DNA of 64,000 bases from Escherichia phage vB_EcoM_G4498: the sequence record NC_054918.1. The stretch is one strand, 5' to 3'. Positions 3,917 through 7,676 of the stretch are shown here, one piece after another. How positions within the stretch are numbered: the first letter of the stretch is position 1; every line of letters begins with the position of its first letter. A program made the translations under genes and the position numbers. Below the pieces are notes generated by a model that saw nothing but the letters and a program-made list of their open reading frames with translations, made no database searches and had not been told where the DNA came from.

Positions 3917-3984
3917 GTTATCGAGTTGGTGCCATTATATACATCATTTTCTGATTGTGTTTTGTGTGCTTTCAAAATGAAGAA

Positions 3985-4000
3985 AGGGGCCGAAGCCCCT
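3985..4000 (-). terminator. Hairpin terminator downstream of hoc
   Basis: AGGGGCCGAAGCCCCT hairpin followed on minus strand by TTCTTCATTTT. Confidence 0.6.
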
Positions 4001-4005
4001 TATGA

Positions 4006-5424
4006 TTATGGATAGGTATAGATGATACCAGTTTCTAAAGCAGTTTTATGAATGATGTATCCATTACGCGATTCTTGAACATCAACTTCTGGATAGTCTT
4101 TCATCATCTTCTGAAGAGTGTAACGATGTAGGTAATATTTACTATCTGGGTCGTCAGTTTTCCAATCTTTACCTTCTTCGGTCATTTTTTGGATTTCATC
4201 CATAACCCACCAACCGCACCAGATATAAGCTGAAGTACGATGTGGAAGAGGATGAACATAAGGTAGTTCACCTTCTGGTTCTGGAGCAACTTTATCAGTT
4301 ACCTGAACTTGACCTTCTGCTGTAATAGTTTTGCTATCGTAATCAGTTGCAGTAACGACAGCAGTAACTTCAATAGTTTGACTTCCAACAGATGAGGTAT
4401 CGACAGTATATACGTTAGTTGACCCTTCTACAGGAGAAGAATCTTTCTTCCATGAGTAAGTAATTTGTGCTTCTTCTGGAGCACCCGTAACATTAGCCGT
4501 AAATGTAGCCGAAGCATCTTGCTGAACATTAATAGAAGGAGGAGTCAATGTAACCTGTGGATTCATTGTCTTCTTATTAACTGTCAATGATACTTCATTA
4601 GAAGTAACTTCCTTTTCATTGTAATTTTCAGCAGTTACTTGGGCTACGCATTTAATTCTTTTTACTCCACTTGTAGTTGGAGTATAGCTAAATGTAGAGT
4701 TAGTTTCTCCACCAACTTGTGAATCATCTACATACCACTGATACGTAGCAGACGCTCCATCAGGTTGAGAAGCTAAGGCAGCAGTAAATTGAACTGGGGT
4801 TCCGATTACTCCCGCTGGAGGACTATCAGGAGTTACTGCCAAAGTAGTTGTCTGCGTCTTTTTATTAACAGTCAGTGACACTTCATTGGAAGTAACTTCC
4901 TTTGTATCATAATCTGTCGCGGTTACTTGAGCTACGCACTTAATTGTTTTAACTCCGCTTGCGTCAGGAGTGTAATTGAATGTAGTGCTAGTTGCTTCGC
5001 CCACAGGAGAACCGTCAACGTACCATTGATACGTAGCGTTTGCACCTGATGGCTGTGAAGCTAAGGCAGCGGTAAATTCAATTGGAGTTCCAATCACTCC
5101 AGCATCAGGGCTACCAGGAGTTACTGCCAAAGTAGTTGTTTGTGTCTTATTTTGAACTGTGATAGTTGTACTAATTTCAGCTGTTTCAGGTTCAGATTCT
5201 GCAACTTGATTGGTTGCAACTACTTTAATAGTCTTTTGACCGGCAGGTCCTTTTAGTACATAACTAAAAGTTGCTGACGTTTCTTCCTGTGGAGCGTCGT
5301 CTACAGTCCAAGCATATGTAATAGTTCCGCCTCCAGTTTCACCACTGGGTGTAGCAGTAAACTGCTTAGTTTCATCAATAACCCCTGTCGGTGTTTTAGG
5401 AGTTATATCAACTGTAAAAGTCAT
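4006..5424 (-). CDS. hoc: Hoc, highly immunogenic outer capsid protein, 472 aa with four Ig-like repeats
   Basis: N- and C-termini match T4 Hoc (MTFTVDITPKTPTG... / ...HKTALETGIIYTYP); one extra 96-aa repeat relative to the 376-aa T4 protein. Confidence 0.9.
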   Translation of the reverse strand: MTFTVDITPKTPTGVIDETKQFTATPSGETGGGTITYAWTVDDAPQEETSATFSYVLKGPAGQKTIKVVATNQVAESEPETAEISTTITVQNKTQTTTLAVTPGSPDAGVIGTPIEFTAALASQPSGANATYQWYVDGSPVGEATSTTFNYTPDASGVKTIKCVAQVTATDYDTKEVTSNEVSLTVNKKTQTTTLAVTPDSPPAGVIGTPVQFTAALASQPDGASATYQWYVDDSQVGGETNSTFSYTPTTSGVKRIKCVAQVTAENYNEKEVTSNEVSLTVNKKTMNPQVTLTPPSINVQQDASATFTANVTGAPEEAQITYSWKKDSSPVEGSTNVYTVDTSSVGSQTIEVTAVVTATDYDSKTITAEGQVQVTDKVAPEPEGELPYVHPLPHRTSAYIWCGWWVMDEIQKMTEEGKDWKTDDPDSKYYLHRYTLQKMMKDYPEVDVQESRNGYIIHKTALETGIIYTYP

Positions 5425-5433
5425 AAGTTATCC

Positions 5434-6114
5434 TTATTTTAATGTTACGAAAGAAGAGTTGCGTGTTTCACGAATTAGAACTGATCCGTCACGGTTAATG
5501 TAATAAATTAAGCTAAATAAAGTTTGGTGTGCTGACGCATGTTCAAAACTAGTTGGGTGAGATTTCCAATCAGGAGTTTCAGCAATCCATTGATAAATCC
5601 ACCAAGGAACAGTACAGAATCCTGGATTTTTTCCAATCAACTGAAGATTCGGGCTAAAGTTTTCCGGAAGAGTAAATACAGACGGCTTTTCAGATTCAAT
5701 AATCTCAGCTACAGCCTGTTCAAATTTTTCTTCAACAAATGGAGTATCTTCAATCAAAACATCGGTATTTTCAGGAATTTTATCTGTTTCTACTACTTCA
5801 ATTTTAATGTCAGATTTAACCGGAGAATCAATCAAAAGTGCTGCTTCTGGATTGACTTCTTCATCGTCATATTTTAACCCCTCTGCAGCATCAGCAGCAT
5901 CAATTAAGTCTTTAATAGATAACCCATCAGTCTCCGGCATAGGTTCACTAGCGAGCTTCTGGAGAGCTTCTTCAATATCATTAACGATATTATCAAAAGA
6001 TTTATTCTTTTTGACCTTTATACCAAACTGTTCAGCATATTCAGCTAATTTAGCTTTAGCTTCTTTATTATCATCAAGAGCCTTCAGCTCTGCAATATAA
6101 TCTTTATCTATCAT
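5434..6114 (-). CDS. inh: Inh, inhibitor of prohead protease
   Basis: 226-aa ORF in the syntenic position between hoc and uvsW. Confidence 0.8.
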   Translation of the reverse strand: MIDKDYIAELKALDDNKEAKAKLAEYAEQFGIKVKKNKSFDNIVNDIEEALQKLASEPMPETDGLSIKDLIDAADAAEGLKYDDEEVNPEAALLIDSPVKSDIKIEVVETDKIPENTDVLIEDTPFVEEKFEQAVAEIIESEKPSVFTLPENFSPNLQLIGKNPGFCTVPWWIYQWIAETPDWKSHPTSFEHASAHQTLFSLIYYINRDGSVLIRETRNSSFVTLK

Positions 6115-6127
6115 AATATTTCCTCAG

Positions 6128-6135
6128 TATAAATA
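6128..6135 (+). promoter_or_regulatory. Late promoter upstream of uvsW
   Basis: TATAAATA 30 nt upstream of uvsW ATG. Confidence 0.5.
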
Positions 6136-6164
6136 TAGATATATTTATTACATGGTATTTAGAC

Positions 6165-7676
6165 ATGACTGACATTAAAGTACATTTTTATGATTTTAGT
6201 CACGTGAGAATTGATTGCGAAGAAAGTACATTTCATGAACTCCGTGATTTCTTTAGCTTTGAAGCTGATGGGTATCGTTTTAATCCGAAGTACAAATATG
6301 GCCACTGGGATGGACGAATTCGTCTTTTAGATTATAATCGCCTTCTTCCATTCGGTTTAGTCGGGCAAATTAAAAAGTTCTGCGATAACTTTGGCTATAA
6401 AGCCTGGATTGACCCACAGATTAACGAAAAAGAAGAATTATCAAGAAAAGATTTTGATGAATGGCTTTCTAAATTAGAAATCTATTCAGGAAATAAAAGA
6501 ATTGAACCGCATTGGTATCAAAAAGATGCAGTGTTCGAAGGATTAGTTAATCGTCGTAGAATTCTTAATCTTCCAACATCCGCTGGTAAATCGTTAATTC
6601 AAGCTTTGCTTGCGCGATATTATTTGGAAAATTATGAAGGTAAAATTCTTATCATTGTTCCAACAACTGCTCTAACAACTCAGATGGCTGATGACTTCGT
6701 TGACTATCGTTTATTCAGTCATGCAATGATAAAGAAAATTGGTGGCGGAGCATCAAAAGATGATAAATATAAAAATGATGCACCAGTCGTTGTTGGTACA
6801 TGGCAAACTGTAGTAAAACAACCGAAAGAATGGTTCTCACAGTTTGGAATGATGATGAATGATGAATGCCATCTTGCTACAGGAAAAAGTATTTCATCTA
6901 TCATATCAGGTTTAAATAACTGCATGTTCAAATTTGGTCTATCTGGTTCATTACGTGATGGCAAAGCCAATATCATGCAGTATGTTGGAATGTTTGGTGA
7001 AATATTTAAGCCAGTAACGACTTCTAAGTTAATGGAAGATGGACAAGTAACTGAGCTAAAAATTAATAGTATTTTTCTTCGCTATCCCGATGAGTTCACT
7101 ACTAAATTAAAGGGAAAAACTTATCAAGAAGAAATAAAAATTATTACGGGGCTTAGTAAAAGAAATAAATGGATCGCTAAATTGGCTATTAAGCTTGCAC
7201 AAAAAGATGAAAACGCTTTTGTCATGTTTAAACATGTATCACATGGTAAAGCTATTTTCGATTTAATTAAAAATGAATACGATAAAGTTTATTACGTATC
7301 AGGGGAAGTTGATACCGAAACCCGCAATATAATGAAAACCTTAGCTGAAAATGGTAAAGGAATAATTATAGTAGCTAGTTATGGTGTATTTTCTACTGGT
7401 ATTTCAGTTAAAAATCTGCATCACGTTGTTTTAGCGCACGGTGTTAAATCAAAAATCATTGTATTACAAACAATCGGTCGTGTATTACGTAAGCATGGTT
7501 CTAAAACAATCGCAACAGTCTGGGACCTCATAGATGACTGTGGTGTCAAGCCAAAATCTGCTAATACTAAAAAGAAATATGTTCACTTGAACTATCTTTT
7601 AAAACACGGCATTGATCGTATTCAGCGCTACGCAGATGAAAAATTTAATTACGTAATGAAAACAGTTAATTTATAA
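6165..7676 (+). CDS. uvsW: UvsW RNA-DNA and DNA-DNA helicase
   Basis: 503-aa ORF; Walker A (LPTSAGKS), DECH box (NDECH); matches T4 UvsW. Confidence 0.95.
   Translation: MTDIKVHFYDFSHVRIDCEESTFHELRDFFSFEADGYRFNPKYKYGHWDGRIRLLDYNRLLPFGLVGQIKKFCDNFGYKAWIDPQINEKEELSRKDFDEWLSKLEIYSGNKRIEPHWYQKDAVFEGLVNRRRILNLPTSAGKSLIQALLARYYLENYEGKILIIVPTTALTTQMADDFVDYRLFSHAMIKKIGGGASKDDKYKNDAPVVVGTWQTVVKQPKEWFSQFGMMMNDECHLATGKSISSIISGLNNCMFKFGLSGSLRDGKANIMQYVGMFGEIFKPVTTSKLMEDGQVTELKINSIFLRYPDEFTTKLKGKTYQEEIKIITGLSKRNKWIAKLAIKLAQKDENAFVMFKHVSHGKAIFDLIKNEYDKVYYVSGEVDTETRNIMKTLAENGKGIIIVASYGVFSTGISVKNLHHVVLAHGVKSKIIVLQTIGRVLRKHGSKTIATVWDLIDDCGVKPKSANTKKKYVHLNYLLKHGIDRIQRYADEKFNYVMKTVNL

Follow-up and report, generated by a model that had tools for sequence, protein, structure and literature searches.

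Two diverged copies of an Ig-like domain unit in the hoc gene of Escherichia phage vB_EcoM_G4498

Background

Does the hoc gene of Escherichia phage vB_EcoM_G4498, which encodes one Ig-like domain more than that of T4, record a recent event in this lineage, or is it an ordinary form of the gene? hoc is a non-essential head-decoration gene of the T4-like phages. The DNA analysed here, referred to as the window, is a stretch of 64,000 nucleotides from sequence record NC_054918.1, and a reading made from its letters alone had described the gene as a length variant that arose by in-frame duplication of a domain. Our analysis makes it very probable that the window hoc is an ordinary two-unit Tequatrovirus (T4-like) allele, derived from an old in-frame duplication of domain 2. 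By this explanation, domain 2, an Ig-like module of 96 aa, would have been duplicated long ago in tandem and in frame, and the copies would have diverged into unit types (A, B and C); present hoc genes would carry one, two or three units, corresponding to proteins of 376, 472 or 568 aa, with A followed by B in the window. Unequal homologous recombination at short identical stretches would collapse or expand the array while keeping the reading frame.

The hoc gene and its neighbours

The gene and the features immediately beside it are the following.

4006..5424, minus strand: hoc coding sequence, 472 aa plus a TAA stop (4006-4008), from the ORF listing and the match to T4 Hoc
5434..6114, minus strand: inh (prohead protease inhibitor), the ORF directly upstream of hoc, whose homologue is so annotated in ESCO58 and ASO78A
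3984..4001, minus strand: terminator-like hairpin AAGGGGCTTCGGCCCCTT with a T-run, immediately past the hoc stop; a terminator is annotated at the same spot in D5505 and ASO78A

In a protein alignment, T4 Hoc (PDB 5vf3_Z, 376 aa) matched the window protein with an E-value of 1.7e-222. The gene order in the window (rnlB, 24.2, 24.3, hoc and inh, followed by uvsW on the opposite strand) is of the T4 type and agrees with that of D5505, APTC-EC-2A, T4, ESh16 and ASO78A; hoc thus occupies its customary position between inh and 24.3/24.2/rnlB, near uvsW. Both the match and the conserved position bear out the earlier identification of the gene. Over the first 25 kb of the window, two Escherichia phages, Ptacy1496 and ESCO58, show 99.3% identity; for G29, G9062 and APTC-EC-2A the value is 97.9-99.1%, and all of these phages belong to Tequatrovirus.

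The gap between inh and uvsW (6115-6164, with uvsW at 6165-7676) is only 50 nt long and contains no segE. At this site T4 has segE and ESh16 has a homing endonuclease, whereas RB30, the classical segE-less recipient (PMC2330249), resembles the window in having no segE beside hoc/inh. The late-promoter motif TATAAATA occurs in the gap on the plus strand (6128-6135); the count of this motif showed no excess over the chance level, the sigma-70 promoter scan gave scores no higher than those of shuffled sequences, and tRNA and Rfam scans of the 64-kb window returned no matches.

Anatomy of the repeat

The repeat lies in the part of hoc that encodes aa 94-285, and consists of two units with a few identical runs in common.

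4858..5145, minus strand: repeat unit 1, type A (aa 94-189), the extra Ig-like domain relative to T4, with the Pfam Ig_2 and BiPBP_C matches
4570..4857, minus strand: repeat unit 2, type B (aa 190-285), the counterpart of T4 domain 2, with the Pfam PKD match at 195-267
5115..5139, minus strand: 25-nt run ACAACTACTTTGGCAGTAACTCCTG in unit 1, unit positions 7-31, a putative crossover site
4827..4851, minus strand: the same 25-nt run ACAACTACTTTGGCAGTAACTCCTG in unit 2, identical to the unit-1 run
Unit positions 243-257: 15-nt identical run, common to both units

Tandem Repeats Finder reported a tandem array at 4568-5148 with a period of 288, 2.0 copies, 78% matches and a score of 708, and a repeat search likewise gave two 288-nt copies at 77% identity. 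No other tandem repeat in the 64 kb of the window scores 60 or more, so the array lies far outside what chance would give. Units 1 and 2 are identical at 76 of 96 amino acids (79%) and at 221 of 288 nucleotides (77%), in frame and with no indels, and their differing codons comprise 35 synonymous and 20 non-synonymous ones. Identical runs of at least 12 nt common to both units number only three, the longest being that of 25 nt and another that of 15 nt.

The alignment with T4 Hoc falls into two blocks, one joining residues 1-114 of the window protein to residues 1-114 of T4 and the other, with 574 bits, joining residues 189-472 to T4 residues 93-376. The blocks surround an insertion of 96 aa, so T4 has one unit and the window two. 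Unit 2 aligns with T4 Hoc residues 93-188, and at the nucleotide level the T4 unit is 90% identical to unit 2 and 78% identical to unit 1. The sequence-only reading therefore stands in its description of the repeat: two 96-aa units about 80% identical at 4570-5145 (the coordinates are exact), nucleotide sequences that also align, one unit more than in T4 (472 against 376 aa) and, by repeat finding and parsing of the translation, an extra unit that copies domain 2 in tandem and in frame.

Predicted domain architecture

Three further domains flank the two units.

5146..5424, minus strand: Ig-like domain 1 (aa 1-93), all-beta, AlphaFold2 pLDDT about 85-93; carries E29 and G33
4297..4569, minus strand: Ig-like domain 3 (aa 286-376), Pfam Ig_3 and I-set at 289-373, T4 residues 189-280; a beta domain in the AlphaFold2 model
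4009..4296, minus strand: C-terminal capsid-binding domain (aa 377-472), almost invariant in 29 homologues; T4 residues 281-376

Matches above the Pfam cut-offs in the window Hoc are PKD (44.8 bits, with a cut-off of 23.5), Ig_2, BiPBP_C and PKD_3. AlphaFold2, run on a 29-sequence alignment, produced four all-beta domains with a pLDDT of about 90 over residues 1-377. The C-terminal domain was modelled with low confidence (pLDDT 31-62), a probable consequence of the shallow, nearly invariant alignment, and the model was left unused there. The best Foldseek matches in the PDB were fragments of four Ig domains, namely Dscam, Sidekick and ICAM-5 D1-D4, together with an ice adhesin. For the last 96 aa, the comparison of the window with T4 Hoc showed one differing position, and the C-terminal region of T4 Hoc is the capsid-binding domain (Fokine 2023, PMC10385173). 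The window Hoc is thus predicted to consist of four beta-sandwich Ig-like domains and a conserved capsid-binding C-terminus, an architecture that had been proposed from the sequence and that the four modelled domains and the T4 alignment support. T4 Hoc is the product of the same gene in the same genomic position and has the same domain 1, domain 3 and C-terminal capsid-binding domain; it differs from the window Hoc in having one unit (a mosaic, see below) instead of two, and Q29 instead of E29.

Multi-unit hoc genes are common

The 1419-nt window hoc, with its two tandem 288-nt copies of domain 2, is a two-unit allele of the RB30 type. It is 100% identical to the genes of Yersinia phage PYps5T and Salmonella phage UAB_60, and 99.8-99.9% identical to those of G9062 (including the RefSeq record NC_054920, 99.9%), Ptacy1496 and JK23; identical hoc genes are found in phages whose isolation hosts were Yersinia, Salmonella, Escherichia and Shigella. 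With unit 1 as the query, blastn matched 888 places across 615 phage records. Units were counted as places per record for this query, and by such a count, in 60 records spread evenly down the ranking rather than in a full census, two places were found in 23 records and three in one, so that 24 of 60 (about 40%) are multi-unit. RB27 and ime09 have two places each and RB30 is also multi-unit, and the hoc genes of T4, T2, T6 and RB3 have a single unit. We had also tried a 120-nt query spanning the junction as a means of counting two-unit genes; its half-matches merge in single-unit genes, and coverage did not discriminate between the two.

The protein lengths give a similar picture. Of the best 120 protein clusters, 79 are 376 aa long, 29 are 472 aa and seven are 568 aa, with a few near-variants, and in the 122 homologues analysed with a unit HMM the length tracks the unit count exactly (one unit for 376 aa, two for 472 aa and three for 568 or 570 aa). 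Two-unit proteins account for 31 of the 122. The three-unit Hocs (568-570 aa), for example those of Shigella phage ESh16 and the Escherichia phages UGKSEcP1 and UGKSEcP2, have the same architecture and 96-aa family as the window Hoc; their first two units are A-like and B-like, and a third unit, of type C or A, brings the number of Ig-like domains to five. The ESh16 gene is 1707 nt long.

Some database entries deserve mention. Record MG010123.1, a 32-kb sequence titled 'Staphylococcus phage SAJK-IND', includes a two-unit hoc of T4-like type at about 88% identity, and is probably mislabelled or contaminated. A cluster of 472-aa Hocs with 58 members (P0014) carries the source name 'endonuclease [Shigella sonnei]', which is likely a misannotation. 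In another 472-aa Hoc cluster (P0049), the second unit is only 56% identical to the first and represents a divergent type outside A, B and C.

A close named precedent is RB30 (AY101183, protein AAM52483), whose hoc, like that of the window, is a 1419-nt coding sequence for 472 aa; its two Ig-like units of 288 nt stand in tandem where those of the window gene do. At the nucleotide level these two alleles are 88.5% identical over domain 1, 86.8% over unit 1, 93.4% over unit 2 and 94.0% over the remainder. The GenBank record lists five domain features and a repeat_region with the note 'intragenic repeat led to appearance of additional immunoglobulin-like domain'. Our literature search found no paper describing the RB30 hoc repeat, which the GenBank annotation alone documents. 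Variation in the number of Ig-like domains in Hoc has also been published (PMC11150434), and the Hoc homologues discussed by Fokine et al. (2023) have one to ten (PMC10385173). That of Serratia phage Muldoon, a distant phage, has 10 with the same C-terminal anchor (PMC10385173). Fu et al. (2024) described a Hoc without domain 3 (PMC11853027); the PNJ-9 Hoc (PMC11853027) has three domains, domain 3 being lost, the same C-terminal anchor and, in domain 2, NEVSLT as in the window. Unlike that of the window, the domain counts of PNJ-9 and Muldoon arose by other events.

The sequence-only reading itself held that the feature would be ordinary if reference Hocs of the same lineage already had four domains, and RB30, RB27, ime09 and G9062 (NC_054920) have such Hocs. 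The variant is old and widespread, reference genomes of its lineage carry it and it had been annotated before; it is an ordinary one, and the implication of that reading that it is notable or recent is not supported, given the share of multi-unit genes in the Tequatrovirus sample and an inter-unit dS of about 1.0. An extra Ig-like domain in Hoc is already known from public genomes, the RB30 annotation and the published variation in domain number. The 376-aa Hoc of T4 is not the sole normal form in the genus, since two or three domain 2 units occur in about 40% of the sampled records; the practical value of the observation is a caution against taking T4 Hoc as the default form, and it carries little weight as a discovery. 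What is added here (the typing of units as A, B and C, unit types predating their flanks, and the exact deletion in ESCO58) amounts to minor refinements of a known polymorphism.

Unit types and their age

Clustering of 170 units from the 122 proteins yielded three main types, A, B and C, and the units group by type rather than by phage. The arrangements are A in 36 proteins, B in 35, AB in 24, C in 10, ABC in four, AA and AC in three each, AAC and ABA in two each and BC in one. Within a protein the units are 56-85% identical (median 79%) and never near-identical. Each window unit has a counterpart in other phages that is 99-100% identical; unit 1, for example, is 99% identical to the sole unit of the D5505 Hoc and 99.7% identical to that of ASO78A.

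By the Nei-Gojobori method, the two window units differ by a dS of 1.02, a saturated value, and a dN of 0.14 (dN/dS = 0.14); between the window and T4, domain 1, unit 2 and the C-terminal part give dS values of 0.19-0.27. The units of RB30 and of ESh16 have diverged to a similar degree. Both window units are under purifying selection, and 14 of their 20 amino-acid differences fall in predicted loops (Fisher p = 0.02).

These values bear on the possibility that domain 2 was duplicated in frame only recently, in the G4498 phage's own lineage. The units are indeed tandem, in frame and of equal length, and T4, T2, T6 and RB3 have only one, as such an event would have it. However, the inter-unit dS is roughly five times the divergence of the flanks between the window and T4, nearly identical counterparts of each unit exist separately in other phages, the whole gene recurs in phages of four host genera with RB30, RB27 and ime09 also two-unit, and no multi-unit Hoc among the 40 clusters listed has units more than 85% identical. 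A recent duplication is hardly credible on these grounds.

A comparison of two single-unit genes points further back. Between ASO78A (single-unit A) and T4 (single-unit B) dS is 0.92 in the unit and 0.20-0.24 in the flanks, and hence the unit types are much older than the surrounding gene. Because of this discrepancy (about 0.9 against about 0.2), single-unit A and single-unit B Hocs are not simple orthologues. The pattern suggests that the unit types are old paralogues with differential loss; the alternative is that the flanks have been homogenised by recombination.

T-even phages recombine freely, and the A-B array might instead have been made by unequal crossover, during co-infection, between diverged single-unit A (ASO78A-like) and single-unit B (T4-like) alleles. 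Single-unit A genes with different flanks do exist (ASO78A), as do single-unit B genes (T4), and the arrangements AC, BC, AAC and ABA show that cassettes have been reshuffled. Such a crossover, however, would have to fuse one unit's end with another's start, and homology there is poor, both between the ends of domain 1 and a unit and between the starts of a unit and domain 3. The contrast in dS between unit and flanks suits old paralogues with differential loss at least equally, and the nearest single-unit genes resemble hybrid deletion products, not parents. We regard this origin as unlikely, and retain the old duplication of domain 2 as the more probable source of the two units.

Single-unit relatives and changes in unit number

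One such single-unit gene is that of ESCO58 (OM386666; hoc at 301-1431 of the extracted locus). In a simulated deletion, its 1131-nt hoc equals the window hoc minus exactly 288 nt with no mismatches, and the junction can lie anywhere in unit positions 6-31, in the 25-nt run. The same deletion model and junction apply to the APTC-EC-2A hoc with two mismatches. In the D5505 hoc, unit-1 sequence runs to position 242 and gives way to a mostly unit-2-like tail, which puts the junction close to the unit's 3' end; the 564 nt downstream match the window at 100% identity. The mark of a deletion product is that unit-1 sites head a unit-2 body, or that unit-2 sites tail a unit-1 body, and, judged from a small number of informative sites at the junctions, the single-unit genes of ESCO58, APTC-EC-2A and D5505 look like products of unequal homologous recombination between the units of a window-like gene. 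On parsimony, and on only two informative junction sites, the difference between ESCO58 and the window looks like a loss and not a gain. The converse, that the window hoc came from ESCO58-like and D5505-like parents, was considered and is less parsimonious, as both of these show the pattern of deletion products.

Since the window and ESCO58 share 99.3% identity across 25 kb, the copy-number change is either very recent or a collapse in assembly. The one-unit forms of ESCO58 and APTC-EC-2A could have come from a short-circuit at the 25-nt run in a short-k-mer assembler: their junction falls exactly in this longest run, and a de Bruijn assembler with k of 25 or less could short-circuit there. 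As a general account, in which the repeat or the one-unit forms of its close relatives would be expansions or collapses made in assembly, this is very improbable. The window units differ at 67 of 288 positions, so that reads map uniquely, the identical 1419-nt gene was independently assembled in at least six records, the one-unit form of T4 is experimentally established (the 376-aa chain of PDB 5vf3), and the D5505 junction is a different one. For the window gene in particular an artefact is unlikely, as the identical gene recurs in independent isolates.

The single unit of T4 (KJ477684, hoc nt 280-567) is itself a mosaic of sites like those of window units 1 and 2, its head and positions 225-242 being unit-1-like and its centre and tail unit-2-like. 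This hints that the canonical T4 allele, too, passed through recombination between unit types. One could go further and suppose that the copy number of domain 2 is a fast, reversible length polymorphism, with recurrent unequal recombination at the 25-nt and 15-nt runs, preserved within units that have otherwise diverged by 23%, and with selection keeping forms of one to three units; we consider this possible but rather doubtful. If it were true, many 376-aa Hocs, possibly including the T4 mosaic, would be collapsed descendants of multi-unit genes, the array would change about as quickly as strains diverge (the window and ESCO58 being an example), and selection on adhesion or fibre length would preserve the forms in populations.

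A different change was seen in G29 (MK327940), where a perfect 55-nt tandem duplication lies within unit 1 (nt 355-409 again at 410-464). It shifts the frame and thereby splits hoc into two annotated ORFs, which is either a knockout of a non-essential gene or an error of sequencing or assembly.

Possible functions of the additional domain

In T4 the string of Ig-like domains of Hoc forms a fibre of 180 Å (PMC10385173). By analogy, the C-terminal domain of the window Hoc would dock one Hoc at the centre of each gp23 hexamer, a mode of capsid binding that we infer from the near-identity of the binding domain, and the Ig-like string would form a fibre pointing away from the capsid and adhering to glycans or cell surfaces. 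The fourth Ig module should then lengthen the fibre by one module. In phage display and in studies of mucus adherence, isogenic Hocs with one, two and three units would form a natural series for relating fibre length or domain dosage to adhesion.

Residues implicated in mucin binding are also present. In domain 2 of the PNJ-9 Hoc, S183, L184 and T185 of the segment N180-T185 (NEVSLT) are needed for binding to MUC2 and fucose (PMC11853027); since all three belong to the final beta strand of the domain, mutating them might do no more than destabilise the fold. NEVSLT occurs twice in the window Hoc, at aa 180-185 and 276-281, the additional domain accounting for the second copy. E29 and G33 have been reported as essential MUC2-binding residues in the PNJ-6 Hoc (PMC11150434), and the window Hoc has both, E29 at 5338-5340 and G33 at 5326-5328, whereas T4 has Q29. 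As sequence correlates of mucin binding by mucus-adherent (BAM-type) Ig-like capsid decorations, the window Hoc has E29, G33 and the two copies of NEVSLT.
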